Assembly: GCA_964413715.1 (NCBI GenBank)
Contig: CAYPSN010000003.1
Coordinates: forward strand, 1-64,000
Reading direction: 5' to 3'
DNA from: an uncultured Candidatus Saccharibacteria bacterium
GTDB lineage: Bacteria; Patescibacteriota; Saccharimonadia; CAILAD01; JADZBC01
DNA length: 64,000 nt
The notes under the pieces: model-generated
Told to the model about the DNA's origin: nothing
Database searches by the model: none
Seen by the model: the letters and a program-made list of their open reading frames with translations, nothing else
Shown: positions 14,406 to 55,921 of the stretch, in pieces
Position numbering within the stretch: position 1 is the first letter of the stretch
Layout of the letters: each line of letters begins with the position of its first letter
Made by a program: the position numbers and the translations under genes

Positions 14406-14442
14406 CTTTCCGACATTAATATTCTTTGGATCCAATAACGAT

Positions 14443-14475
14443 AAAACCGCACCTTGTAGTGCGGTTTTGTTGTTC
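14443..14475 (+). terminator. rho-independent terminator (aaaaccgcac cttgta gtgcggtttt + T-run)
   Basis: hairpin plus U-tract. Confidence 0.65.
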
Positions 14476-14498
14476 AGTAGTTGTGTATAATTGCGTTT

Positions 14499-14532
14499 TC
14501 TCCACTTAGGCCCCGAAGAGCCTAAGTGGAGA
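14499..14532 (-). terminator. 13-bp perfect hairpin (tctccacttaggc cccgaaga gcctaagtggaga) 3' of the high-GC minus-strand gene
   Basis: inverted repeat, no U-tract. Confidence 0.5.
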
Positions 14533-14548
14533 GGGTGCCTGGGTGTGA

Positions 14549-15046
14549 TCAGGCGACCGGCTGGTCTTCCAGCTCCCAGGAGGTTCGGGTGGTGAACTCC
14601 GACAGCCGCGGCGCCTTGAGCTCCTTGGCCTTGTGGTCCAGCCACAGCACGATGGCTTGCTGCTGCTTGAGCTGGTCGGGAGAGACGTTCGCTTGCATGG
14701 TGGTCTCCCAGCCGATCTGCGAGTTCGCTCGGTCGATGAGCTTGGCGACGAAGTCGTCGCCCATCAGCTTGCCGATGGCGGTACGCATGCGATCGTCGCC
14801 GATGACGTGCATGAACTGGCCACCAGGACTGGTACGCAGCAGCGTCTTGAGCGGAACGGACAGCTGGATGATGCTGCCGTCAGCCTTGGCTGCGATGGTG
14901 ATGCTCTCGACCGTCGTCTCGATCGCGACGTCGTTGTCGGGGTCGCCCTGGTTTCGGAACTGCACCACCAGCAGATCGCCGTGGCTGTAGCCCTTGCCCG
15001 AAGCGATCTTGCCTGGCATGGGGATTCTCTGGAGTGTTGCTTGCAT
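14549..15046 (-). CDS. hypothetical protein (166 aa), high GC, unknown family
   Basis: GAGAGGAAG RBS then ATG (MQATLQRIPMPGK...); the longer ORF to 15130 runs into low-GC flank. Confidence 0.6.
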   Translation of the reverse strand: MQATLQRIPMPGKIASGKGYSHGDLLVVQFRNQGDPDNDVAIETTVESITIAAKADGSIIQLSVPLKTLLRTSPGGQFMHVIGDDRMRTAIGKLMGDDFVAKLIDRANSQIGWETTMQANVSPDQLKQQQAIVLWLDHKAKELKAPRLSEFTTRTSWELEDQPVA

Positions 15047-15220
15047 TGACTTCCTCTCGTGTCGATTGCAACAGTAATTCATTTTGCCGAAGAATGCTGA
15101 TTTTTGCAAGTAAACCATACGATGATACAAAAAATCTTACTTTTCAAGACTTATGTTGCTTAAGGTTTGGGCATATAATGTATGTAATATGCAAAAGTGG
15201 GGTGAGGAGGGGTAACCTGC

Positions 15221-18200
15221 GTGTCGTCTAGTACGGAAACAAAAACCGATACACAAAAGCCAGCTGCCAGTTCAGCCGTGGTTGATTTTGTGCATTTACA
15301 TAATCACACACACTATAGCTTGCTCGATGGCTTGCAGAAGATACCGCAGCTGCTTGATCAAGTAGAGGCTCTTGGGCAAAAGGCTGTAGCCATTACTGAC
15401 CATGGTACACTCTCGGGCGCAATTGAGTTTTATAAGGAGTGTAAGAAGCGCGACATTAAACCCATTATCGGCATGGAGGCGTATGTTGCGCCGAGAAAGC
15501 ATACCGACAAAAGCTCCAAAGAAGATCGTACGCCGTATCACTTGACCTTGCTCGCTAAGAACGAACAAGGCTACAAGAACCTCTTGAAGCTTTCGACCAT
15601 TGCTTGGCTCGATGGTTTTTATTACAAGCCACGTATTGATCGTGATTTATTAATGAAATACCACGAAGGCTTGGTGTGCCTGTCGGGCTGCATCGGTGGC
15701 GAACTGGGCACTCATATTCTTAATGGCGACCCGGATGATGCCATGGAGGCTGCCGAGTGGTACAAGAATCTATTCGGCGCAGAAAACTATTTTCTGGAAG
15801 TTCAGCCACACATTGGCTGGAAGCCGCAAGACCGCGTGAATGCAGGCTTGCAGGTTATTGCTAAGACCCTTGGCTTGGGCTTGGTGGCAACTGGCGATGC
15901 TCATTACACCAAAGACACTGACCACTATGCCCATGATATTTTGCTCTGCGTGCAGACTGGCAGCTTACTGGAAGATCCGAACCGCATGAAGCTTGACCAA
16001 GATCTGTCGGTGCGTAGCGGGGAATTTTTTGCTGAGAAATTTCCCAATCTACCAGAAGCCATTACAAATACAGTGAAGATTGCCGATATGTGCGATTTGT
16101 ACATCGAACTTGGCCAGATTCTGATTCCAAAATTCGACGTGCCCGAAGGTGAGACAGAAAAGAGTTACTTACGAAGATTGGTATTTACGGGCGCAGCTTG
16201 GCGGTACCTGAAAGTACCCAAGGAAGATTTGGCAACTATGAAAGAGAGCGACATAAAGCCAAAACTTGAGGCCAAAGTGGTCGAGCGGATTGAATACGAG
16301 CTAGAGGTGATCGGCAAAATGGGTTACGAAGGTTACTTCTTGATCGTGGCGGACTTGATTAACTGGAGTAAGAATCAGGGGATAATCTGCGGGCCTGGTC
16401 GTGGTAGCGCCGCAGGCTCGATTGTGGCATACCTTACTAACATTACCGACCTCGATCCACTGGAGTATGACCTGCTGTTCGAACGATTCCTAAACCCAGA
16501 CCGTATATCCATGCCTGATATTGATATGGACTACGCCGACGATAGACGTGAAGAAGTGATTGCTTATGCGACCGAGAAGTATGGACAGGAGCGAGTTGCT
16601 CAAATCATTACCTTCGGTGTTATGGCGGCACGTAACGCCGTGCGCGATACGGGCAGAGTACTAGGTATGCCGTACGCTGAAGTCGACGCCATTGCAAAAC
16701 TAATTCCTGCTCCAGTGCAAGGCCGACACATTCCGCTAGCCAAGTCGATTGTGGAAGATCAAGATTTATCACGAGAGTATAATTCAAACCCGCGTGCTAA
16801 AAACGTGATTGATGTGGCTATGCAGCTGGAAGGTACAATTCGCAATGCAGGTACGCACGCGGCTGGTGTAGTGATTGCCCCCGAGGCATTAGTCGAGCGC
16901 GTGCCACTTACGCGGGCGTCGAAAGGCGGCATTGCCACACAATACACCATGGGGCCGGTAGAAGAATTAGGGCTTCTCAAATTCGACTTTTTGGGTCTGT
17001 CGAACTTAACGATTATCAAAAACACCCTGCGTATTATTCGAAAAGTTTATGGTGTGGAGTTGGATCCGGCTCACATTCCGCTGGATGATGAAAAGACTTA
17101 TGAGCTGCTGGCGCATGGCGACACAACTGGCGTGTTTCAGTTGGAGTCTTCTGGTATGAAACGATACTTAAAAGAACTCAAACCAGATCGATTTGATGAC
17201 ATTATCGCCATGTGTGCGTTGTATCGACCGGGTCCACTCTCGGCCGGGCTGACCGATAGTTTTGTGCGACGCAAAAACGGACTTGAAGAAGTCACCTACG
17301 ACCATCCCTCGATGGAGCCATCGCTGAAGACCACCTATGGCGTTTTGGTTTACCAAGAGCAGGTTATGCAATTCTCTAAAGACGTCTGCGGCTTTACTGG
17401 TGGTGAGGCCGATACTCTGCGTAAGGCGATTGGTAAAAAGCAAGTTGAGACTATGGCCAAAATGAAAAAAGCCTTCATAGAAGGCGGCGTGACCCATTCT
17501 AAAGTACCACGTGATATTATGGAGCGATTTTGGGATCACTTACTGGGCTTTGCCGACTACTGTTTTAATAAATCGCACTCCGCTTGCTACGCCTTAATCG
17601 TGGTTCAAACTGCTTATCTTAAGGCTCACTACCCGGCAGCATTCATGGCAGCGCTGATGACCAGCGATTACGGCAATCTCGACCGCATTGCCATAGAGGT
17701 AACAGAGTGCCGCAAGATGGGCCTAGAATTATTGCCCCCAGATGTGAACGAGAGCTACTATGAGTTTGCAGTTGTGCCAGAAACCAACAATATTCGTTTT
17801 GGCCTGGCGGCGGTTAAGAACGTTGGCTCGGGGCCGATCGCAGCGATCGTTGCAGCGCGTGACGAAGGTGGCTCGTTCAAATCTGTCGAGGATTTTGCCA
17901 AGCGCGTAGATGCTGCCCACGTAAACCGTAAAACCATGGAAAGCTTAATTAGGGCCGGGGCATTCGACAGCATGGGTGAACGTGATACGTTGCTGGAAAA
18001 CGTGGACAAAATTACTTCCTATGCCACTCGGGCGCAAAAGAATGCGCTATCTGGTCAGATTGATATTTTTGGCGCTATTGGCATGCAAGACGAAATGCCT
18101 CCACTCCAGTTCGACATTCCTAATTCTAAGCCTGATTTACGGCAACACTTGATGTGGGAGAAGGAGTTGCTTGGATTGTACATATCCTCGCACCCACTCG

Positions 18201-18850
18201 ATGAGTATGATAACTATTTGTACGACCAGACGATGCCACTCAGTAAGCTCAATTCAAGCCTCGAGAATCGCTCGGTCCACATTGGCGGAATCATTACTAC
18301 CTTCCGTAAAATTACCACTAAGGCCGGCTCGAGCATGGCATTCGTGGGTATAGAAAGTAAAGACGGCGAAGTCGAACTCATTGTCTTTCCGCGGCCGTTT
18401 GAAAATTACCAGGCGATTTTGGCCGTTGATAATGTGGTCGAAGTTGAGGGTAAGGTTAGTACAAAAGATCGCGACGGTAAGTTGGGTGGCGAATTAAAAA
18501 TCCTAGTTGATAAGGTAAAGCTGATCGATATAGAAAAAGCGCGCAAGTGGCTTCCCAAAAAGCGCGAAGAAGCGGTCGAAGACGAAGCGCCAGCGGTAGC
18601 GCATCAGGAGCTCTTTGTGCACCTTGATAGCCTCAAGGACAGCTCGCAGCTCTTGGCAGTTAAGAAAATCTTAGAACGCCAAAAAGGACCATGTGCGAGT
18701 TATTTGGTCTTGGGCGGGCCAGAGCGTAAGTTGATTAAATTACCATATAAGGTGGCGATTAATGACATTGTTACGAGCGAACTGAATGAGCTGCTCGGCG
18801 CTGATCATGTAGTGGTAAAAGAAGCTAGCACGCAGCATGCCACGGCATAA
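15221..18850 (+). CDS. dnaE: DNA polymerase III alpha subunit
   Basis: PHP domain at the N-terminus, polymerase core and OB fold; 1209 aa; GTG start with GAGGAGG RBS. Confidence 0.9.
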   Translation: MSSSTETKTDTQKPAASSAVVDFVHLHNHTHYSLLDGLQKIPQLLDQVEALGQKAVAITDHGTLSGAIEFYKECKKRDIKPIIGMEAYVAPRKHTDKSSKEDRTPYHLTLLAKNEQGYKNLLKLSTIAWLDGFYYKPRIDRDLLMKYHEGLVCLSGCIGGELGTHILNGDPDDAMEAAEWYKNLFGAENYFLEVQPHIGWKPQDRVNAGLQVIAKTLGLGLVATGDAHYTKDTDHYAHDILLCVQTGSLLEDPNRMKLDQDLSVRSGEFFAEKFPNLPEAITNTVKIADMCDLYIELGQILIPKFDVPEGETEKSYLRRLVFTGAAWRYLKVPKEDLATMKESDIKPKLEAKVVERIEYELEVIGKMGYEGYFLIVADLINWSKNQGIICGPGRGSAAGSIVAYLTNITDLDPLEYDLLFERFLNPDRISMPDIDMDYADDRREEVIAYATEKYGQERVAQIITFGVMAARNAVRDTGRVLGMPYAEVDAIAKLIPAPVQGRHIPLAKSIVEDQDLSREYNSNPRAKNVIDVAMQLEGTIRNAGTHAAGVVIAPEALVERVPLTRASKGGIATQYTMGPVEELGLLKFDFLGLSNLTIIKNTLRIIRKVYGVELDPAHIPLDDEKTYELLAHGDTTGVFQLESSGMKRYLKELKPDRFDDIIAMCALYRPGPLSAGLTDSFVRRKNGLEEVTYDHPSMEPSLKTTYGVLVYQEQVMQFSKDVCGFTGGEADTLRKAIGKKQVETMAKMKKAFIEGGVTHSKVPRDIMERFWDHLLGFADYCFNKSHSACYALIVVQTAYLKAHYPAAFMAALMTSDYGNLDRIAIEVTECRKMGLELLPPDVNESYYEFAVVPETNNIRFGLAAVKNVGSGPIAAIVAARDEGGSFKSVEDFAKRVDAAHVNRKTMESLIRAGAFDSMGERDTLLENVDKITSYATRAQKNALSGQIDIFGAIGMQDEMPPLQFDIPNSKPDLRQHLMWEKELLGLYISSHPLDEYDNYLYDQTMPLSKLNSSLENRSVHIGGIITTFRKITTKAGSSMAFVGIESKDGEVELIVFPRPFENYQAILAVDNVVEVEGKVSTKDRDGKLGGELKILVDKVKLIDIEKARKWLPKKREEAVEDEAPAVAHQELFVHLDSLKDSSQLLAVKKILERQKGPCASYLVLGGPERKLIKLPYKVAINDIVTSELNELLGADHVVVKEASTQHATA

Positions 18851-18851
18851 C

Positions 18852-18884
18852 AAAAACTACCACCCCTCAGGATGGTAGTTTTTA
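18852..18884. terminator. bidirectional terminator hairpin (aaaaactacca...tggtagttttt)
   Basis: hairpin flanked by A-runs and T-runs. Confidence 0.6.
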
Positions 18885-18889
18885 AATAA

Positions 18890-19535
18890 TTGCTGTAGGG
18901 CGGCGGTGGAAAGAGCGTGAGCTCTCACCACCACCGGGACGGTGCTTGGACCCGCGAAAGTCCAGGTCGGCGTGCCGGCCGACGGAAACCCTTGCGGGTC
19001 TCCCGAGGGTACCATGCAGGTTATAACCGAAAGCGGTTATAAACTTTTGACCGCATGGCGGCGAAGCTTCGCTTGGTGGGCGCAGCCTGCCCTGCAAATT
19101 ACCTGGTGCTTTACAGCACAAGGGGTCGAGTTCCGCATCATCTTCATCCGAACCGCTAAGCTCAGATTAGGAATCTACTTTCCCCAGAGCGACTTGCAGC
19201 CGTCGCTCCAGCACAACCTATAGGCTAACCGCTTTTACACCTGCGGCTAATTGTGCTGACTTTTTGTCTGGTGCCCGGGCATCCTCGGGGCTACTACAAG
19301 TTGCGCTTCGGGCCAAACCGTGCGCTCACTCCTGCGTAGTAGGCGTAATTTTTCGGGATAAGGTTTTCCTGCGGCTGCCGGCCGCTGGTTACCTCTGCTG
19401 TTGGCAGAAACTTCAGCGGTGCGGCCGCACCTCCCTAGACAAGCTTTTGAGTGGGGAGTCGCCTCCCCAGGTGCCTCCATCGGCCCGGTGCCCCGGTCCT
19501 TTAGCTGCTTCCTTCGCGCTCATTCGCACTGTCAG
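18890..19535 (-). ncRNA. candidate structured ncRNA (family unassigned); GC-rich, ORF-poor region driven by a minus-strand promoter
   Basis: about 58% GC against about 48% background; only short Ala/Arg/Pro-rich junk ORFs; dense hairpins; TTGACA-17-TATTAT upstream on the minus strand; ends at the bidirectional dnaE terminator. Confidence 0.3.
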
Positions 19536-19541
19536 GACAAC

Positions 19542-19570
19542 ATAATATCATACTAAATATAAAATGTCAA
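19542..19570 (-). promoter_or_regulatory. sigma70-like TTGACA-17-TATTAT, minus strand
   Basis: consensus -35, exact 17 nt spacer, 5/6 match at -10. Confidence 0.4.
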
Positions 19571-19589
19571 TACTTTTTTGGCATATCTA

Positions 19590-19618
19590 TTGCCTAGGTG
19601 GGGCAAATATGTTAGACT
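19590..19618 (+). promoter_or_regulatory. sigma70-like TTGCCT-17-TAGACT upstream of rplS; the ATG lies about 10 nt downstream, so the mRNA may be leaderless
   Basis: motif spacing; no SD sequence before the rplS ATG. Confidence 0.3.
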
Positions 19619-19627
19619 CATAAAGTT

Positions 19628-20251
19628 ATGAACGCAATAGAACTCGTCGAAAAGAAGAATTATAAAACCAAAGTGGTAGACGTACGCCCTGGTGACACTG
19701 TTCGTGTGCACCAGATGATCCGCGAAGGCAATAAGCAGCGTGTGCAGGTGTTCGAAGGTGTCGTTATTCGCCGCAAGAGCATGAATGGCTTACAGGCAAG
19801 CATTACTGTACGCAAGATTGCCTCGGGCGTAGGTGTAGAAAAAACTTGGTTCCTACACTCACCAAATGTTGTGAAGATCGAGGTAATGCGTCGCGCTAAA
19901 GTGCGTCGAGCATTCTTGGGCTACATGCGTGGTTTGCGCGGTAAGGCTGCCCGTATGGCTGAGCAAGAGTTTGACCGAGCGGCTGCCAATGAAGCCGATG
20001 CTCGCACAGCTGGTCAGATAGCTGCCGAAGCCGAGGCCGAAGCTGCTGCTACCGAAGCCCCAGCCGAAAACGCTGGCGAAGATGTAATGCAGCAAGCTGA
20101 TACAGTTTCCGCCGAAGAAGTTGCTAAGCAAGAAGAAAAAGAAGCTAAGCAAGCTGATCCGGAAAAAGACGCTACTGCCAAAGACGACGAAGCCGTCGCT
20201 GAAAAGGTAGAGGCCGAAGCTGGCGAAGCCAAAGCCGAGCCAAAAGCTTAA
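19628..20251 (+). CDS. rplS: 50S ribosomal protein L19 with an Ala/Glu/Lys-rich C-terminal extension of about 95 aa
   Basis: L19 core followed by a low-complexity tail. Confidence 0.85.
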   Translation: MNAIELVEKKNYKTKVVDVRPGDTVRVHQMIREGNKQRVQVFEGVVIRRKSMNGLQASITVRKIASGVGVEKTWFLHSPNVVKIEVMRRAKVRRAFLGYMRGLRGKAARMAEQEFDRAAANEADARTAGQIAAEAEAEAAATEAPAENAGEDVMQQADTVSAEEVAKQEEKEAKQADPEKDATAKDDEAVAEKVEAEAGEAKAEPKA

Positions 20252-20300: not shown

Positions 20301-20975
20301 GATTAGTAATTGCGGGAGAAATAGTACCGAAAATGAAGAACGCCTCCCTGTGAGGGGAGGCGACCAGAGCCAGGAAGCCTGGATGGATTTCGAAGTTAGG
20401 CGGGCATTGCCCGCCGGTGGAGAGACGTTGACTGAGGTCAGCTAGGCTGAAGTCCTCGTATGGGTTTATTGGGGCGGTATTTCCGCGCGCCACCCATACC
20501 TTCTCTGTCTCAAGAAGGGGGAGGAAAGAGCCGACTATTCGGTTAGTCGTCCTGAATGCTCTTGCTGGCAACACCACGAGGGAGTCCTCCATAAACTACC
20601 AGCTTTGTTTGCTCACCGGTACTCCGGTCCAAACACTCCCATTTCTTCGACGGCAAGGGTGCTGATTCCGTGATCCGATTGTAGCCCTAGGAGCCACGTA
20701 GAGTTCTCCTCTATCAGATCGATAGTCCGCAGGCACTCCGGCCCGGCTATCCATTTGCAACAGGCCCGCTGCTGCTCGGGTCCACCGCTGGGGTGAACGA
20801 TCCACCCGCTGTTCCTTGCGGGGTCATCCAGTATGCTCCTGTCGGAACTCCCCACTTGCGTGGCAGGAGCATCTCCCTCACCTAGAGGAAAGTCAGGTCT
20901 GAAGTCAGGTGCTTCATTCCCTAGCCAAGCAAAGGTGTAAGCTCGGCAGTTTGGTAGCCCGAAGGCGACCGAACA
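20300..20975 (-). ncRNA. candidate minus-strand transcript, GC-rich (about 60%); either a structured ncRNA or a frameshifted remnant gene
   Basis: TTGACA-17-TATTAT promoter at 20981-21009 on the minus strand; ends at the rplS bidirectional terminator; two adjacent ORFs (125 aa and 101 aa) in different frames; many hairpins (ggcgggcaatgcccgcc, ccaggcttcctgg, cctcccctcacagggagg). Confidence 0.3.
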
Positions 20976-20980
20976 TAGGC

Positions 20981-21009
20981 ATAATAGCACAGCATAACAA
21001 TAATGTCAA
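20981..21009 (-). promoter_or_regulatory. sigma70-like TTGACA-17-TATTAT, minus strand
   Basis: consensus -35, exact spacer. Confidence 0.4.
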
Positions 21010-36572: not shown

Positions 36573-36601
36573 TTGACAATGTTAAGCATATGTGCTAATA
36601 T
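36573..36601 (+). promoter_or_regulatory. sigma70-like TTGACA-17-TAATAT immediately upstream of the high-GC 117-aa gene
   Basis: consensus -35, exact spacer, 5/6 match at -10. Confidence 0.45.
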
Positions 36602-36651
36602 CCATTACAGTGTTCTGGTAATCGGCCGGAACTAAACATTGGGGAGGCCCA

Positions 36652-37005
36652 ATGCTGCGAAGAGCAGAGCCCAGCCCAATCCCGCGCCGTGGCACGGTCG
36701 CCATGGACGGGAACCGGATCCGGCAGTTCGACCTCGGGTCGCTCGAGCCGGGAGACGTGCTCCACGTCAAGACCCTGCAGTCGGACTGGTACTTCACCAG
36801 GACGAAGCGCAGTGTCGTGACGCGGGATCAGGTCCGCGGGATCTTCGTCCAGACGTCCTCGCGGGCGTTCGGACAGATCACCCGCGACCCTGCCAACGTC
36901 TCGATCGATCGAGTGATCGAGAAGGGTGAGCAGATCCGCATCAACGGTGCCCGTCGTACGGGCGACGTCGAGCAGATCTTCCTCAACGGTCGCGAGCTCA
37001 CCTGA
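36652..37005 (+). CDS. hypothetical small protein (117 aa), high GC, unknown family
   Basis: GGGGAGG RBS then ATG; followed by a perfect hairpin. Confidence 0.6.
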   Translation: MLRRAEPSPIPRRGTVAMDGNRIRQFDLGSLEPGDVLHVKTLQSDWYFTRTKRSVVTRDQVRGIFVQTSSRAFGQITRDPANVSIDRVIEKGEQIRINGARRTGDVEQIFLNGRELT

Positions 37006-37027
37006 GCAACTTCGCTCACGCTCCAAG

Positions 37028-37056
37028 GCCAGGGTCCCCACGCTGGGGACCCTGGT
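37028..37056 (+). terminator. 12-bp perfect hairpin (ccagggtcccca cgc tggggaccctgg), no U-tract
   Basis: inverted repeat. Confidence 0.5.
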
Positions 37057-37159
37057 ACAGGGCCCAATCAAGGATCATCTCCGAAGAGGATGGTCCTCTT
37101 TCGTTATATGGGCTTATCACCCTGTCCAATCTAGTCACTTTCTGCTAAGATATGAAACT

Positions 37160-48333: not shown

Positions 48334-48810
48334 ATGCCAAGAAAGAAGACCAAATCTTTAAAGCGTGAACTAAGCCCAGACATTGTGTATAACAATGTTA
48401 TGGTTACTCGTATGATTAACAAAGTTATGCGCAGTGGTAAGAAGCGACTTGCTGAAAAGCTCGTTTACGACGCACTCAAGGTGGCTGCAGATAAAACCCA
48501 AAAAGATGCCTTAGAGGTATTTGAGGGAGCTATTAAAAATGTTTCGCCACAGGTACAGGTGAAGAGTAAGCGCATTGGTGGTACGAACTACCAGGTGCCA
48601 ATGGAAGTGCGCGGTGATCGAAAAATCCATCTGGCAATGACATGGATTCTAACGTCTGCTCGGGGACGAAGTGGCCAGTCTTTTGATAGGCTCCTTGCTA
48701 ACGAGCTGGTGGATGCTTATAACAACACCGGCGAGTCGGTGAAGAAGAAGCAAGATACTCACCAGATGGCCGAAGCCAACAAGGCTTTTGCTCACTTCGC
48801 CCGCTACTAA
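48334..48810 (+). CDS. rpsG: 30S ribosomal protein S7
   Basis: 158 aa, S7 family. Confidence 0.95.
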   Translation: MPRKKTKSLKRELSPDIVYNNVMVTRMINKVMRSGKKRLAEKLVYDALKVAADKTQKDALEVFEGAIKNVSPQVQVKSKRIGGTNYQVPMEVRGDRKIHLAMTWILTSARGRSGQSFDRLLANELVDAYNNTGESVKKKQDTHQMAEANKAFAHFARY

Positions 48811-48834
48811 TCAGGCTTAGTAGAAAGTTTAATC

Positions 48835-48866
48835 AAAAAACTCGCCACTCAGGCGGGTTTTTTGAT
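48835..48866 (+). terminator. rho-independent terminator (short GC stem flanked by aaaaaa and tttttt)
   Basis: hairpin plus U-tract. Confidence 0.5.
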
Positions 48867-48954
48867 GCTGTTTATTGTGGATTATTACTGGTCAAATGAT
48901 AACGACCCTAGTACATTTGCATGCACTAGGGTCGTTGGGGGGGGCAGGGGTAGC

Positions 48955-49143
48955 TCAGTCGGGTGGCAGGGGAGTGCTGATCTCCCTGAACTCGGGGCTA
49001 CCGCTGGACGGGGTGGCGCGAAGTTCGCGTGCTGGCACGAGGCCTTCTGCGGCGTGTTCTTCGGTTCGGCTGAACTGAGCGCCCACGTAGGCAGCCATCT
49101 GCGCTGCCCGCGCCTTGGCGGTCTTGTCACCAGTACTCTCCAT
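48955..49143 (-). CDS. hypothetical small protein (62 aa), high GC
   Basis: GAGGAG RBS then ATG (MESTGDKTAKARAAQMAAYVGAQF...); located downstream of tdk on the same strand. Confidence 0.45.
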   Translation of the reverse strand: MESTGDKTAKARAAQMAAYVGAQFSRTEEHAAEGLVPARELRATPSSGSPEFREISTPLPPD

Positions 49144-49173
49144 GTTTGCTCCTCGCTCTATAGGACCTCAGTT

Positions 49174-49202
49174 ATCCTATACTAGCTTGCAGTCTTTGCC
49201 AA
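49174..49202 (-). promoter_or_regulatory. weak sigma70-like TTGGCA-17-TAGGAT, minus strand, between tdk and the 62-aa ORF
   Basis: motif spacing only. Confidence 0.25.
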
Positions 49203-49205
49203 GTC

Positions 49206-49754
49206 CTAACGAGCAGAGACGAAGCACTGCCTGCAGCGCGCTTCATAGCTGTAGGTGCCGTCTTCTGGCAGGATGGAGGGGAGCCCTCCGGTAACTTCTT
49301 TGCCGTCCTTGAGAACCTGACTGAAGCGTGCCTCGTAGCTCTTGCACACATCGCAAACAGCGATAAGGCACTGCACGCTTGTTGGACCAAGCTCCATCAG
49401 GGCGACGGTGCTTTCGATCAGCCTGCCTCGATAGTCCATATCGAGTCCGACAGCATGAATGACTAGCCCCTTGGCCAAGAGCGAGTTCAACGCCCCCAGG
49501 TCGTCTTGACCGAACATGTGAACTTCATCGATGCCAATGACGTCGTAATTGGCGAGCCAGTCGATGTCGAGTCTGTCGACCTTCGTCGTTTGGATGCTGG
49601 CACCTGCACGAGAACTGACTTGGGTTTCTCTGTCGTGAAGCTTGGGCTGCACAACGACCCACCGCATGTCGCTATGAGCAAGTGGCGAAAAGATTTTGAC
49701 AAGCTCGAGGGATTTCCCCGACTTCATGGGTCCCATCGTAAGGTGTAGCGGCAT
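49206..49754 (-). CDS. tdk: thymidine kinase, high GC
   Basis: P-loop GPMKSGKS; VSSRAG; DE(V)H.F; GLDMDYRG; C-terminal zinc ribbon CDVC...CRQC. All are collinear with the TK1-type family. AGGAGA RBS. Confidence 0.8.
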   Translation of the reverse strand: MPLHLTMGPMKSGKSLELVKIFSPLAHSDMRWVVVQPKLHDRETQVSSRAGASIQTTKVDRLDIDWLANYDVIGIDEVHMFGQDDLGALNSLLAKGLVIHAVGLDMDYRGRLIESTVALMELGPTSVQCLIAVCDVCKSYEARFSQVLKDGKEVTGGLPSILPEDGTYSYEARCRQCFVSAR

Positions 49755-49888
49755 TACGTGCGTCTCCTGTGGTTTGTTTGGCGTGATTCTATTCTAGACC
49801 ATGCATCCAGTCTCTCGCTAGTTCTTTAACTTGCGAGGCCTGCGGGCAGTAGAATTTTTGTTGGCAGCTCGTTCGAGCCAAACATTAC

Positions 49889-49917
49889 TTGATAAAGTTG
49901 AGCAAATTCACTATAAT
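49889..49917 (+). promoter_or_regulatory. sigma70-like TTGATA-17-TATAAT upstream of fusA
   Basis: near-consensus hexamers, exact spacer. Confidence 0.45.
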
Positions 49918-49994
49918 TACCAAGGAATAAAGCACGGAAAACCAAACCGGCTTTTTTGTTTACTAACTTAGCTTACAGAAGGAAGAACGAATTT

Positions 49995-52103
49995 ATGGCT
50001 CGCGAGTATTCATTAGAAAACACACGAAACATCGGTATTATTGCTCACATTGATGCTGGTAAAACGACCGTTACAGAAGGTATCTTGTACCGTACTGGAC
50101 GTGTCCATAAGATTGGTGAAGTGCACGAAGGTGCTGCAACCATGGACTGGATGGAGCAAGAGCAAGAGCGTGGTATTACGATTACCTCGGCAGCCACAAC
50201 TTGTTTCTGGAATGATAAGCGCATTAACATTATTGACACTCCAGGACACATCGACTTTACCGTAGAGGTAGAGCGATCGTTGCGTGTTCTTGACGGTGCT
50301 GTTACGGTTTTCGACGGCAAAATGGGCGTAGAGCCACAGAGTGAAACGGTGTGGCGTCAGGCCGACAAGTACGGCGTGCCTCGTATTTGCTTCATCAATA
50401 AGATCAATCAAACCGGCGGTGATTTTTACAAATCCCTCGAATCAATCCACGAGCGTCTCAGCAAGCGGGCGTACCCAATTCACTTGCCAATTGGTTTTGA
50501 GCAAGACATTAATGGCTTAGTCGACTTGGTTGAGATGAAGGCCTACGAGTACAAAGATTACACCGACAAAGAGCTAAAAGAGATTGAGATTCCGGAAGAT
50601 ATGAAAGAAAAGGTGGCTCACTACCGCCAGCACTTGATTGAAGCGGCCGTTGAGAGTGATGACTCGTTGATGGAAAAATACCTCGAAGGCCAAGAACTTA
50701 CGACTGAAGAAGTTAAGACTGCGATTCGTAAGTCAGTTCTTTCCGGTCAGTTCTATGCCGTTTCCGGCGGTGATGGTCGTGGCGTGATTGTAGAAAAGCT
50801 GCTTGACGCCGTAGTAGACTACTTGCCAAACCCACTCGACATTACCGCGCCACTTGGTAAAGATGTTAAAACTGGCGAAGACAAAGTCCTAGAAGTTTCT
50901 GATGAAGCACCGTTTGCTGGCTTGGCCTTTAAGATCGCAACCGACCCATTTGTCGGTAAGTTGGCTTTCTTCCGAGTGTATTCAGGTGTACTAAAGAGTG
51001 GTAGCTATATTCTCAATGCCTCAACGGGCGAAAAAGAGCGCGTCGGTCGAATCGTACGTATGCACGCCAACAATCGTGAAGAAGTAAACGAAGTGTATGC
51101 TGGTGAAATCGCTGCTGCAGTAGGACTTAAGAATACTATTACGGGCCACACCATTTGTGACCCTGCACACCCCGTGATGCTCGAGTCAATCACCTTCCCA
51201 GAGCCAGTTATTTCGATCGCAATTGAGCCAAAAACCAAAGCCGACCAAGAAAAGATGGGTATTGCCTTGTCTCGTTTGGCCGAAGAAGATCCGACCTTCC
51301 GTGTGCACTCTGACGAAGATAGTGGTCAGACCATCATTGATGGTATGGGTGAGTTGCACCTCGATGTGATTGTGGACCGCATGAAACGTGAATTTAAGGT
51401 AGAAGCCAACGTAGGGCGTCCTCAGGTTGCCTACCGCGAGACTATTCGCAAGTCTACTCAGATCGAAGGTAAGTTTGTGCGCCAATCTGGTGGTCGTGGT
51501 CAGTATGGTCATGTTTGGCTAGAACTTAGCCCGCTCGTTCACACCGATGACGATGAAGAGCGCAAGACATTCGAGTTTGAAAACGCCATTGTGGGTGGTG
51601 TGGTGCCCAAGGAATACATCAAGCCAGTTGAGGAAGGCGTTCGCGAAGCCATGGGTAATGGTGTTCTAGCCGGCTATCCAGTAGTCGATATTCATGCCAA
51701 GCTTTATGATGGTAGCTATCACGATGTAGACTCTTCGGAACTTGCTTTCAAGATTGCCGGCTCGATGGCACTTCAGGCAGGCGTACGCCAGGCTGACCCA
51801 GTTATTCTAGAGCCAGTCATGCGAGTTGAGATTACGACGCCAGAAGACTTCATGGGTGATGTGATAGGTGATATCAACGCCAAGCGTGGTCGAGTAGAGA
51901 AGATGGAAGATCGCAGCGGCGCTAAGATCATTAGCTCTTTCGTGCCGCTTTCTGGGATGTTTGGCTATGCTACAAGCTTGCGCTCGATGACACAAGGACG
52001 TGCTAGTTATGCTATGGAGTTTGACCATTACGCTGAAGTGCCACGTAACGTTGCCGATGAGCTTATTGGCAAGCGCCAGGCAGCCGTCGAAGAAGGTCGC
52101 TAA
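49995..52103 (+). CDS. fusA: elongation factor G
   Basis: G-domain AHIDAGKTT; AGGAAG RBS before the ATG at 49995. Confidence 0.95.
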
Positions 52104-52126
52104 GAGAAGGTCCTAAGGCTAAAACT

Positions 52127-52160
52127 AAAAAACAACCCCATTGACAGGGGTTGTTTTTTA
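52127..52160 (+). terminator. rho-independent terminator (aacaacccc attgaca ggggttgtt + ttttt)
   Basis: hairpin plus U-tract. Confidence 0.65.
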
Positions 52161-52169
52161 GTTTATTGT

Positions 52170-52672
52170 AGTTATTGTTCGTGCAAGTAGCTTCAGAGTA
52201 TGCGCTAGTTACCTAAGCAAGTTAGTTGAGACTTGTAGCTGTAATGAAAGCAGGCGTGCTGCAGCACACCACCTGTTGTGCAGAATCATCTCATTGTACT
52301 CGCCGCCATCAGAGTACTCCTCGCAGAGGCAGCTTCAGGAGAGCGCCCCGGGTTGAAGAGAGACTGAAGTTACGTTGCAAAAACTACGTATTCAGCGAAA
52401 GCTGAGTGCCCGGATGCGCATCTGGGCTGTGTGAGTAAAGGTGGGTCTAAGGATGATCACTTGGAGACCCTTAAAAACGCACAACGTAGTTGGTGGGGCG
52501 TCATGATCACGACGCCTTGACATCACCCCAGACAAGAAGCGTTCCACCACGCGATGGGGTCCGGTAATGATGTCCGCTCGGCCCGAAAGCTGTGTAGTCC
52601 TGCCTGAAGGACGCCGGTACACAAGCTTTCGGGCCGCCCGCCCCAGGCAACCCCTGGGGCATTTGTCATTTC
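52170..52672 (+). ncRNA. candidate structured ncRNA / structured spacer between fusA and tuf (family unassigned)
   Basis: about 55% GC; no credible ORF; composite hairpin at 52579-52636 (18-bp outer stem with one bulge, enclosing a 4-bp inner hairpin and a 5-nt internal loop); repeated (g/c)atgatcac loops; terminal hairpin ccccagg...cctgggg plus a U-rich tail; possible TTGACA-17-TATTGT promoter overlapping the fusA terminator. Confidence 0.3.
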
Positions 52673-52801
52673 CGGGCACCTACCTCTTTACATTTCGGCA
52701 ATTTTTACCTATAATCGAAAAGTCTAATGCCTAGGCATATTTTTTGTGACCTAAGCACAGCGCTTTTATAAAAAGATTAACCAAGCATTCAAGGAGAATA
52801 T

Positions 52802-53986
52802 ATGGCAGAAACATTTGATCGCAGTAAGCCCCATGTAAATGTCGGTACCATGGGTCACGTAGACCACGGTAAAACCACACTTACAGCTGCAATTACGCAC
52901 GTATTGGCTAAAAAGTTACCAAGCGCGGTAAACAAGCCAATTAACTATGATGAAATCGACAAGGCTCCAGAAGAGCGCGAACGCGGTATCACCATCGCTA
53001 CTTCACACCAAGAATACGAAAGTGAAAAGCGTCACTACGCTCACGTTGATATGCCAGGTCACGCTGACTACGTGAAGAACATGATTACCGGTGCTGCTCA
53101 GGTTGACGGCGCTATCTTGGTAGTATCTGCTGCAGACGGCCCAATGCCACAGACTCGTGAGCACGTACTGCTTGCTCGTCAGGTTGGTGTGCCTTACATC
53201 CTTGTTTACATGAACAAGATGGACATGGCTGATCCAGAACTAGCCGAATTGGTAGAAATTGAAATTCGCGAACTTCTTGCCAAAAACGGCTACGACGAAA
53301 ATGCGCCTATCATTAAGGGTTCTGCCCTTAAGGCTCTCGAGGGCGATGCAGCAGCTGAAGACTCTATTATGGAGCTCGTAAAAGCTATGGACGAAAGCGT
53401 TCCAGAGCCAAAGCGTGAAATCGACAAGCCATTCTTGATGCCAATCGAAGACGTATTCTCAATTAAAGGTCGTGGTACTGTTGCTACTGGTCGTATCGAG
53501 CAGGGTATCGTTAAAGTAGGTGAAGAAGTAGAGATCGTTGGTCTTCACGACACTAAGAAAACAACCGTAACTGGTGTAGAAATGTTCAAGAAATTGCTCG
53601 ACGAAGGTCGTGCTGGCGACAACGTAGGTTTGCTCTTACGCGGTATTGAACGAACTGACATCGAGCGTGGTCAAGTACTTGCTAAGCCAGGCTCAATCAC
53701 ACCTCACACTGAATTTGATGCAGAAGTTTACGTATTGAAGAAAGAAGAAGGTGGTCGACACACTCCATTCTTCAAAGGCTACAAGCCACAGTTCTACATC
53801 CGTACAACCGACGTAACTGGCGAAGTTACTCTACCAGACGGCGTAGAAATGGTAATGCCTGGTGATAACATTCAGATGAAGGTTAAACTCATCGCTCCAA
53901 TTGCTATGGAAGATGGTTTGCGATTCGCAATCCGTGAAGGTGGCCGAACTGTTGGCGCAGGTGTTGTAACCAAGATCAACAAATAA
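52802..53986 (+). CDS. tuf: elongation factor Tu
   Basis: GHVDHGKTT; 394 aa. Confidence 0.95.
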
Positions 53987-54013
53987 ACATCAAGGATCGA
54001 ACGGAACCTTAAC

Positions 54014-54334
54014 ATGCCAGAACAAGCCAACAAACAACGCATACGAATCAGACTAAAAGCCTACGACAGCAAGATTATCGATCAATCTGCTAAGCAGATT
54101 CTCGATACTGCTGTACGTACCGGTGCTCAAGTAGTGGGCCCAGTGCCGCTTCCTACGGACAAAAACAAGTTTACGGTGCTATCGAGCCCCCACGTTTTTA
54201 AAGACGCTCGAGAGCAGTTTGAAATGCGCACACACAAGCGTTTGATTGATATCACAGAGCCAACTCCTAAGACGATAGATTCTTTGATGAATCTTAATCT
54301 TCCAGCTGGTGTTGATATCGAAATCAAAATGTAA
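54014..54334 (+). CDS. rpsJ: 30S ribosomal protein S10
   Basis: [12 protein letters not shown]-terminus. Confidence 0.95.
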
Positions 54335-54367
54335 TTTGCCTTGGCATCTAATAGGTAAGTCCTAACT

Positions 54368-54397
54368 AAAACACCCCCTGAATAAAGGGGGTGTTTT
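54368..54397. terminator. bidirectional terminator (aaaacaccccct gaataa agggggtgtttt)
   Basis: hairpin with A-tract and U-tract. Confidence 0.65.
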
Positions 54398-54419
54398 AGT
54401 TATGCAAAAAGGCGAGTGA

Positions 54420-54492
54420 GGCGGACCAAAGTCATTAAATGGTTAATTACTTTGGTCCGCCCGCCTGACCCCCCGGTGAAGGGGTCAGGCGG
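54420..54492 (-). terminator. two tandem perfect hairpins (13-bp and 12-bp stems) at the 3' end of the high-GC 105-aa gene; the second overlaps its stop codon
   Basis: ggcggaccaaagt...actttggtccgcc and ccgcctgacccc ccggtgaa ggggtcaggcgg. Confidence 0.5.
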
Positions 54493-54800
54493 TATGGGCG
54501 TAAGGCTTCCCTGCAGGGTAGGGAGGCTCGAACACAGGGCGTTGATCGGAGATCTCCTGCATGCGTGCTCGTACCTTGAGCCGAAGCTCTTCGAGGCTCT
54601 CGCGATCCTGCGACACCCAGGTGAGAAGGAAAGACCTTCTCTCTCCTTCGAGCCGTTCTGAGACATGCACCGTAGGGCTGATCCCTTCAAGTGCTCGCTC
54701 GACCCACTCTGCGTTGTAAGAGGGCCGGTTTGTGAGCGAGAGAACAAGCCCCGTGCTCGTGCGATGGAGACTGAACCCCAGCGATTGAAACTCAACCATG
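54485..54800 (-). CDS. hypothetical small protein (105 aa), high GC, unknown family
   Basis: AGGAGG RBS then ATG (MVEFQSLGFSLHRTST...); the ORF extension to 54904 runs into low-GC flank. Confidence 0.6.
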
Positions 54801-54920
54801 ACCGAACCTCCTTTCACAGGTAGATTGTGGCTCGGTAGTCTGAAGACAAGATCTACAGGCTGCCGAGCACAAGACTGTGAAATTTGCAAAGTACTTAAGG
54901 TCATGCCTTAATGTGCACAA

Positions 54921-54949
54921 ATCATACTATAGGCAGCCAAATCTGTCAA
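54921..54949 (-). promoter_or_regulatory. sigma70-like TTGACA-17-TATGAT, minus strand; would give a structured 5' UTR of about 110 nt for the 105-aa gene
   Basis: consensus -35, exact spacer. Confidence 0.4.
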
Positions 54950-54972
54950 TAACAAAAACTTCACAAAAACAC

Positions 54973-55001
54973 TAGACAAAACAGCAAACTTGTATTATTA
55001 T
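54973..55001 (+). promoter_or_regulatory. sigma70-like TAGACA-17-TATTAT, plus strand, divergent from the preceding promoter
   Basis: motif spacing. Confidence 0.35.
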
Positions 55002-55007
55002 GTAAAC

Positions 55008-55609
55008 CTACGTTTGGTTCGCCCAAATTGCACCTTATAGCACCTTGAGCCTTCGGCTCTTGGAATCAGTCCCCGAATCATTGTTGGGAATTTATTCTAA
55101 GAGCCGAAATGTCGAAAATATAAAATGTGAAAATAAAATCGACAAAAGGCTCATAAAACTGTCTTGGCTCCTTGGCCTCCTTCGGGACGCCACTGGAGCA
55201 GTAGTAGTGCAAAGGTAGAGCGCCGCGCTTCCGTGGCTTCGGCCAGGACGCCACCGCGTCTCCTCGCACTGCTACAGCGCTCCACAGGAGCCAAGACACT
55301 CTTCGGCGCAATGACTGCGAACGTGCCCTCACGGGCTTCTCGCCTTTGCGTCGCCAGCGGGGCGGGATCCGCCGCCTGCTCCGCTCGGACTACGAGCGCT
55401 GAACCTGTGACTGGGCTGTTGCCCTGGCGCGGAGTATAGCCTCACGAGAGGTTGGCACACACGTCGACCTCTCTCGCTCGTGTCAACCAGCTTTGGTTGA
55501 CCATGAGCGCGACGCCGGGATCCGCCGCCTGGTGTCGCCGCCGGTGCGGGGCGGCCTCCGGGCCGCCCCGCACCTCGCCCTGACAATACGTCAGGGTTTC
55601 TTTTATTTT
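55008..55609 (+). ncRNA. candidate structured ncRNA (family unassigned) with an intrinsic terminator
   Basis: ORF-poor, about 65% GC core (55150-55600); four UUCG-closed hairpins; 12-bp long-range stem 55160/55285; 15-nt direct repeat gggatccgccgcctg at 55374 and 55517; 3' hairpins ggggcggcc/ggccgcccc and ccctgac aatac gtcaggg followed by tttcttttatttt. Confidence 0.35.
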
Positions 55610-55657
55610 AGGAATAATTTCTTCGACTCCTCATAGTTTTTATGCTTAAATAGGTAT

Positions 55658-55921
55658 ATGAATAACGGGCGGAAAAAGGCATACCATGAGTCTGACTTTG
55701 CGTTTTTAGTTAAAGCAGCGCTGTATTTAATCCTGGGGCTTACTTGGATTTCAGTAAATGGCCATCGGGTGATCCCAATTGGCGTAATTTTAGGCTTTCT
55801 ATTTTCCAAGGTCGACGTGCTAAAAATTGACCGTAAAATTGAATACGCCCTTCTGGTAGTTGGTGCGCTCCTCGGCTTGGTCTTTACGGGTATCGGCTTA
55901 ACAGTGGCGCTGAACTTCTAA
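55658..55921 (+). CDS. small membrane protein (87 aa)
   Basis: two TM helices. Confidence 0.45.
   Translation: MNNGRKKAYHESDFAFLVKAALYLILGLTWISVNGHRVIPIGVILGFLFSKVDVLKIDRKIEYALLVVGALLGLVFTGIGLTVALNF

Follow-up and report, generated by a model that had tools for sequence, protein, structure and literature searches.

A candidate gene for a large structured RNA between dnaE and rplS in Candidatus Saccharibacteria

The gene order dnaE-rplS is general across the class of the Candidatus Saccharibacteria (TM7, Patescibacteria), the gap between the two genes being only 34-90 bp in most genomes. What, then, is encoded in the much longer interval found between them in the DNA analysed here, a stretch of 64 kb from a 140-kb Saccharibacteria metagenome scaffold (hereafter the window), for which the source record has no called gene? 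A preliminary description, made from the sequence, had raised the idea of a structured RNA running from a minus-strand promoter to the dnaE terminator, and had considered the interval a plausible location for a housekeeping RNA (rnpB, ssrA or ffs). Our results support the general idea, whereas the proposed identity fails. We put at about 0.7 the probability that the minus strand of the region encodes, as a transcription unit of its own, a large (~650-690 nt) and structured non-coding RNA (ncRNA) that belongs to no described family. This predicted ncRNA between dnaE and rplS is here named U1; a further unit, at 20335-21009, is named U2.

Anatomy of the cassette

The dnaE gene (15221-18850) encodes a DnaE protein of 1209 amino acids (aa) with 88-90% identity to DnaE of Saccharibacteria metagenome-assembled genomes (MAGs). 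Alignment with the empty sites of three relatives (L001, L004 and L060; 45-79 bp there) delimits the whole cassette as 18851-19585, i.e. from the dnaE stop codon to the conserved rplS promoter (TTGCCTAGGTGGG...TAGACT). The cassette has 57-60% GC in a window with a mean GC of 49.5%, and within it the body of U1 (18890-19536, minus strand; ~647 nt) has 59% GC (0.587 at 18901-19200 and 0.600 at 19201-19500), no Rfam match, no conserved open reading frame (ORF) and a consensus fold with its homologue in the related locus L002. The longest ORF in the region, on either strand, is of 93 aa; the interval is thus, as had been described, a GC-rich and ORF-free gap.

Homologues were sought with blastn and nhmmer among 80 Saccharibacteria loci fetched via DnaE. 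Only L002 and L003, which are identical to each other in this region, carry U1, and twelve look-ups via rplS variants added a single carrier, L095; this record derives from a different sequencing run, and its copy of the element matches that of L002 at 100% identity. In both types, i.e. that of the window and that of L002/L003/L095, U1 occupies the same site, flanked by the dnaE stop codon and the conserved rplS promoter. Approximately 54% of the alignment columns are identical between them, with 77-81% identity in the alignable blocks; the parts kept in both variants are the -35 element, the TG, the -10 element, a 5' leader (CUGACA.UGCGAAUGAG), a 43-nt block, the 3' domain and the terminator hairpin.

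The minus-strand TTGACA-17-TATTAT promoter of the preliminary description (19542-19570) was borne out. It comprises a -35 TTGACA at 19570-19565, a 17-nt spacer, a TG at 19550-19549 and a -10 TATTAT at 19547-19542 (TTGACA-17-TGaTATTAT), i.e. it scores 11/12 with an extended -10 TG, and the predicted transcription start of U1 lies near 19535. Just two sites scoring 11/12 with the TG are present in the 64 kb, this one and 21009-20981, compared with an expectation of 0.07 from 100 block shuffles, none of which reached two sites; the second heads U2, which is ORF-free and GC-rich and lies beyond rplS. The bidirectional terminator that had been proposed to close the region is likewise present at 18852-18883 (both strands), as an inverted repeat (18852-18865/18870-18883) between an A-run and a T-run, directly after the dnaE stop codon (18848-18850) and common to U1 and dnaE. 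In L002 both promoter hexamers and the TG are identical to those of the window and the spacer is different, and the terminator is kept as a hairpin with changed sequence and a better U-run on the minus strand. The retention of the predicted promoter and terminator in L002 argues that U1 is probably transcribed.

Conserved structure of the predicted RNA

Applied to the two variants, RNAalifold gives 123-128 consensus pairs, none of which is broken and 25-27 of which have changed on both sides. Because RNAalifold itself picks compatible pairs, two controls were run, i.e. column shuffles and slid partners. Column shuffles that keep the conservation pattern gave a consensus energy of -91 +/- 6.4, compared with -156.2 observed (z = -10.2 and -7.6 for the minus and plus strands, respectively). 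With the structure fixed at 116 pairs, all cells (100%) pair and 24/116 pairs have double changes, whereas sliding the 3' partners by 1-3 columns leaves only 38-51% of the cells paired and 3-5 pairs double-changed; none of 500 shuffles reached the observed fixed-structure values. On the minus strand, 15 single changes preserve pairing via G-U. The structural signal lies mainly in the consensus energy and the slide control, and less in the raw count of double changes. The single-sequence minimum free energy (MFE) z, which is about -6 on both strands, was discounted because GC-rich coding units and the major vault protein (MVP) gene of the window score -3 to -9, the high values of the coding units arising partly from mixed composition. 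Conserved structure with compensatory changes beyond controls, as expected of a structured ncRNA in the generic sense, is thus found on two distinct sequences.

The best-supported elements are local hairpins, i.e. those at 19211-19256 and 19291-19342 and the four of the 3' domain (all minus strand). In the first (19256-19249 x 19218-19211) there are five consecutive double changes, and the arms are wholly different in the two variants, yet still paired (GCACAAUU/GGUUGUGC versus UAGUGAUC/GAUCACUA). The second is an 8-bp helix (CUACUACG/UGUAGUAG; 19342-19335 x 19298-19291) with 2 double changes, which encloses a variable insert. The 3' domain (18902-19003), a succession of four hairpins, has 5 double changes, plus 4 single changes that keep the pairing through G-U. 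Its hairpins pair 19003-18996 with 18991-18984 (with a conserved GCAA loop), 18983-18978 with 18971-18966, 18964-18958 with 18953-18947 (containing the plus-strand GAAAGTCC) and 18935-18928 with 18909-18902; one of the four has a conserved CGGCAC loop. The second is formed by gtcggc/gccgac and covaries with the homologue, such that the GC-rich helices which the preliminary description had picked out are real. A covariance model built on this domain (R1) retrieves only U1 copies.

Towards the 5' end, a block of 43 nt (19411-19453, minus strand; RNA CACUCAAAAGCUUGUCUAGGGAGGUGCGGCCGCACCGCUGAAG) is identical in both variants while its flanks diverge, and is the predicted core, at which long-range helices and a multi-helix junction would start. 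The conserved 5' junction domain (19361-19435, minus strand) comprises the helices 19426-19421 x 19378-19373, 19419-19414 x 19387-19382, 19409-19404 x 19398-19393 and 19370-19368 x 19363-19361; these are mostly invariant and thus offer little covariation by which to test them. For the segment 19435-19427 (GGGAGGUGC) the predicted partner is 18945-18936 (GCACCGUCCC), the alternative in other alignments being a pairing of GGGA with UCCC near 19350. A hairpin at 19018-19045 (UUAUAACCG/CGGUUAUAA) is specific to the window, L002 having another hairpin (CUGCA/UGCAG) in its place. We also noted direct repeats inside U1 at a spacing of 400-403 nt (18973-18995/19376-19398, 23 nt, 74%; 19041-19050/19441-19450, 10 nt, 90%); the similarity is weaker in L002, and they may be the trace of an old internal duplication or arise by chance.

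Several points weigh against the interpretation of the region as a gene for a structured ncRNA. There are only two distinct U1 sequences, and these served both to derive the structure and to test it. The 25 double changes observed compare with 19 +/- 3.4 in column shuffles, a difference of ~1.8 standard deviations. Invariance of the long-range helices, together with their alternative partners, leaves the global topology uncertain; transcription is a prediction; the role considered below is drawn by analogy; and both strands fold about equally well, such that folding alone does not settle the strand. Four features favour the minus strand: the consensus promoter, which is conserved, the U-run of the terminator in L002, the stronger shuffle z on this strand and the 15 G-U-preserving single changes.

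Were U1 expressed as these signals predict, a consensus sigma-70 promoter of constitutive appearance, with an extended -10, would fire away from rplS, and the transcript would fold into several domains, i.e. a conserved 5' junction around the invariant 43-nt block, a middle of fast-evolving hairpins whose sequence changes while pairing is kept, and a 3' end made of the row of four hairpins. Transcription would end at the hairpin that also terminates dnaE. We infer that the product with a function is the folded RNA itself, and would guess that U1 may act as a folded RNA scaffold or as an RNA or ribonucleoprotein particle. This proposal comes from its size, complexity, stand-alone organisation and sporadic distribution, for which the nearest counterparts are the ROOL, GOLLD and OLE RNAs, orphan large RNAs for which such a mode of action has been put forward; a base-pairing regulator or a housekeeping ribozyme appears less likely. 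No constant protein neighbour of U1 was seen.

Distribution and alternative explanations

U1 is an accessory element, being present in some and absent from other close relatives. Among the members of the genus-level clade that could be examined, all the others, i.e. L001/L090, L004, L060, L084, L085/L086, L088, L089, L091-L093, L096 and L097, have an empty site or a protein gene in its place, the empty sites having 45-90 bp between dnaE and rplS. A tree of the DnaE C-terminal region places L001 and L002 as sisters (96% identity), with the window 86% identical to both; since L001 lacks U1, at least two losses or a transfer are required. The dnaE-rplS gap is, moreover, an insertion hot spot, with sixteen other lineages having insertions of 0.6-2 kb there, nearly all of which contain ORFs of 140-360 aa, as against an ancestral gap of 34-90 bp. 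Carriers of such insertions include L015, L022, L024, L027-L031, L033, L036, L038, L040, L053, L064 and L084, with ORFs mostly on the minus strand; the gap of L029 is 703 bp long and AT-rich, with no ORF above 43 aa.

A divergent housekeeping RNA, i.e. RNase P RNA, transfer-messenger RNA (tmRNA), signal recognition particle (SRP) RNA or 6S RNA, would account for a GC-rich, structured and strongly promoted element beside core genes, and the octamer GAAAGUCC (= GAAAGTCC on the plus strand, 18956-18963) had been likened to conserved region I (CR-I) of RNase P RNA; this explanation is nonetheless effectively refuted. RNase P RNA is essential and expected in every genome of the lineage, whereas close relatives lack U1 at this site with the flanking genes intact (absence being scored at the dnaE/rplS flanks of relatives, as opposed to whole genomes). 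The 4227 models of Rfam 15 matched only three tRNAs at gathering thresholds over the whole window; at E<=10, which was applied to selected regions, none matched 18700-19750 on either strand, and the homologous region of L002 gave only terminator-like noise far below threshold. ARAGORN found three tRNAs in the window and no tmRNA, i.e. no tRNA-like domain or tag frame for U1. The octamer is present as described, but its likeness to CR-I does not stand: it reads GTAAACCC in L002 (also given as GUAAACCC), i.e. it is not conserved, and on the minus strand it supplies one side of a hairpin that covaries (UGGACUU/GGGUCCA in the window, UGGGUUU/GGACCCA in L002). As a hairpin arm with compensatory substitutions, it is therefore not a CR-I element. 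Although RNase P RNA (RF00010/RF00011) resembles U1 in being GC-rich and structured, in having its own promoter and in the part of CR-I that the octamer recalls, the octamer lies on the other strand, no type A/B model with the CR-I/CR-V P4 core matches, the P4 elements are absent, and U1 is dispensable and ~1.7 times too long. At ~650-690 nt U1 is far above the size of any of these RNAs, SRP and 6S RNA being of 100-270 nt. Group I/II introns and small self-cleaving ribozymes were also rejected, as no such model, nor any for insertion sequence (IS)-associated RNAs, matches the U1 region, no intron or ribozyme model matches L002, and U1 has its own promoter and terminator. The possibility that U1 is a protein gene or decaying pseudogene, e.g. 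a GC-rich small-protein cassette or a murB remnant, is highly improbable, despite the small minus-strand protein genes at the same site in many Saccharibacteria (murB in L084) and the small proteins encoded by other GC-rich promoter-bearing units of the window. Comparison of the window element with its homologue by tblastx gives equal scores in six frames, confined to nucleotide-conserved blocks; indels of 1, 2, 6, 10 and 25 nt between the variants break every frame, and the stop-free segments differ, with no ORF shared. The 43-nt block has no synonymous variation, and the ORFs that cover it in the two genomes use different frames; hence it is not a protein sequence that is under constraint. 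No Pfam match was found for the six ORFs of the U1 region and no similarity of U1 to MurB, and a six-frame chimeric query of 5.8 billion proteins retrieved not even a spurious ORF called on any homologue. Pairing kept through double changes is unexpected of a pseudogene, and the Shine-Dalgarno (SD) sequence, start codon and conserved frame that would together mark a small protein gene are not found for U1, in contrast to U5p/U8p, which are 58-85% conserved as proteins. Annotation of the region as a hypothetical protein, or as rnpB, ssrA or ffs, should thus be avoided.

Its patchiness among close relatives, its location in an insertion hot spot and a composition that differs from that of the genome could also mean that U1 is a selfish or relict mobile element (an ORF-less intron, a fragment of a phage or plasmid, or akin to a miniature inverted-repeat transposable element), the structure serving its own propagation or being a leftover. 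This we consider unlikely, as the cassette ends have no terminal inverted repeats or target-site duplication, and neither in the window nor in 1.16 Mb of related loci did blastn, nhmmer and two covariance models detect a further copy. Nothing was matched in viral contigs, phages or plasmids by a three-motif scan of IMG/VR and by blastn ('distant') against phage and plasmid collections, and a scan of JGI metagenomes with an 18-nt core motif gave two chance matches only. Possession of its own promoter and terminator is unlike an intron, and both carriers have the element at an identical site, the two sequences having diverged about as far as vertical descent would predict. A role in cis or at the DNA level, e.g. 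as insulator of the rplS promoter against dnaE read-through, as a convergent transcript that modulates the dnaE 3' end or as a DNA structure, is quite improbable; it would fit the terminator common with dnaE, the back-to-back arrangement with the rplS promoter and the similar folding of both strands, but most relatives manage on a gap of 45-90 bp, 650 nt of compensated helices exceeds the needs of an insulator or terminator, and the transcript overlaps the dnaE side no further than the terminator hairpin. Were U1 instead a protein-titrating sponge or base-pairing regulator (CsrB-like or a long small RNA), as might be suggested by its strong promoter and several conserved unpaired A-rich stretches, one would look for repeated binding motifs or for targets; GGA motifs are, however, as frequent as expected (14 observed versus 14.1), 5 being unpaired and with no concentration in loops, and there are no internal tandem repeats and no extended complementarity elsewhere in the 64 kb, making this a very improbable explanation.

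Large bacterial RNAs and the units around rplS

Few large bacterial RNAs with an intricate fold are known outside the universal set, and those described to date (OLE, GOLLD, ROOL and raiA) were each biochemically unexpected. ROOL, GOLLD and OLE are in the same size class as U1 (~580-800 nt compared with ~650-690 nt), and, like it, are stand-alone genes with an intricate multi-helix fold, a GC content above that of their surroundings, a sporadic, strain-variable distribution and a function that is not evident from context; ROOL and GOLLD also resemble U1 in having no obligatory adjacent protein gene. These three RNAs form homo-oligomeric assemblies, as revealed by cryo-electron microscopy (PMC12286853). 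U1 differs from them in that it is known from sequence alone, in only two variants, and in belonging to another phylum (Saccharibacteria/Patescibacteria); it lies neither beside tRNAs nor in a prophage, lacks the partner genes of OLE, and, like L002, is unmatched by the ROOL, GOLLD, OLE, raiA and HEARO covariance models at E<=10.

The preliminary description had considered, as an alternative, that U1 belongs to one class with the other ORF-free, promoter-bearing GC-rich units of the window. This holds in part for U2, which resembles U1 in promoter type, lacks an ORF and is conserved in structure although it is unrelated to U1, and fails for four units that are protein-coding. U2 (20335-21009, minus strand) lies between rplS and rnhB, has a TTGACA-17-TGcTATTAT promoter (21009-20981) and a terminator (20362-20341), and has no called gene and no Rfam match, searches at E<=10 of U2, of 48800-55700 and of seven related loci returning only tRNAs and terminator-like noise. 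Its core of ~440 nt is present in L004, L060, L088, L089, L091 and L092 and absent from L001-L003, and 33/96 consensus pairs have double changes; U2 thus looks like a further unclassified structured RNA, with better comparative support than U1. The U2 nhmmer profile and the U1 covariance models R1 and R2 do not cross-match. The presence of this neighbouring, unrelated structured unit (7 homologues, 33/96 covarying pairs) indicates that the clade does carry RNA genes of this kind.

As many as three modules, A, B (= U2) and C, lie in tandem in the rplS-rnhB gap of relatives, each with a TTGACA...TGnTAnnAT promoter and a terminator (L060:2557-4221, L084:3125-4166, L085:1181-2232, L089:3098-4236 and L091:2260-3527). 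Module A is ~330-480 nt and module C ~360 nt long; both have conserved folds (alignment-shuffle z = -5.5 and -8.1, respectively) and no Rfam match. U2, A and C resemble U1 in being ORF-free minus-strand units of 56-58% GC that flank rplS, with their own terminator, a covarying structure, a TTGACA-17-TGnTATTAT promoter and a presence that varies within the clade. U2 and C are shorter than U1, which is not detectably related to A, B or C; the motif CUUGnCUAGGGA is the only short stretch common to U1 and the neighbouring modules, and may be due to chance. The promoters of A, B and C have the spacer sequence GTTAYGCTATG in common, which hints at a single origin of this part of the modules.

It is conceivable, though in our view doubtful, that U1, U2/B, A and C represent at least four unrelated families of large (350-690 nt), structured and strain-variable RNAs that have strong promoters and evolve fast, exchanged as cassettes around rplS and forming the accessory RNA repertoire of an episymbiont with a reduced genome, and that they might be self-assembling particles, or partners or cargo of a vault-like (MVP) shell encoded in the window and in the L002 genome. 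A genome of ~1 Mb can ill afford useless DNA, and were the RNA cassettes functional, part of the accessory genome of such episymbionts would consist of RNA instead of protein. To our knowledge, the ncRNAs of the Candidate Phyla Radiation are almost unexplored. U1 is a credible new large-RNA candidate from an under-explored phylum, one of several in its clade and of very narrow distribution, and merits study by metatranscriptomics and by covariance-model searches of whole databases.

The four protein-coding units, at 8090-8547 (-), 14440-15220 (-), 36573-37110 (+) and 54365-54949 (-), are GC-rich, have a consensus promoter and an SD sequence with ATG, and encode proteins of 100-165 aa, none of which is matched in Pfam or PHROG. 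Of these, the proteins of 104 aa and 165 aa have conserved counterparts in L001 (81-85%), the latter also in L058/L005 (58-59%). Three of the cassette proteins have a similar N-terminal motif resembling (E)xGDxLxV, and the high GC at third codon positions (GC3) of these cassettes suggests a foreign or separate gene pool. Two further promoter-to-terminator units, 52141-52670 (+) and 54973-55610 (+), have no obvious SD sequence with ATG, MFE z values of -5.7 and -12.7, respectively, and only terminator-like noise in Rfam; the latter contains very long GC-rich hairpins. A thymidine kinase gene at 49206-49754 (-; Pfam TK, 4.5e-22; PHROG 592; GC3 0.67) lies in a GC-rich stretch beside a 107-aa ORF that has no family match.

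The MVP gene, an ORF of 877 aa at 999-3632 (+; 65% GC, GC3 0.85), matches Pfam MVP_shoulder (2.5e-27), Vault repeat and SPFH/Band_7, and its product is thus a homologue of the eukaryotic major vault protein. It has >5500 homologues at E<=1e-20, many of them metagenomic, including one that is 68% identical and one, from a Parcubacteria MAG, annotated 'major vault protein'; any link of this protein to the RNA units is pure speculation. The gene for ribosomal protein L19, adjacent to the cassette (19628-20251, plus strand), has in this clade an Ala/Glu-rich C-terminal extension of ~90 aa, and all five differences between L095 and L002 fall within this extension.

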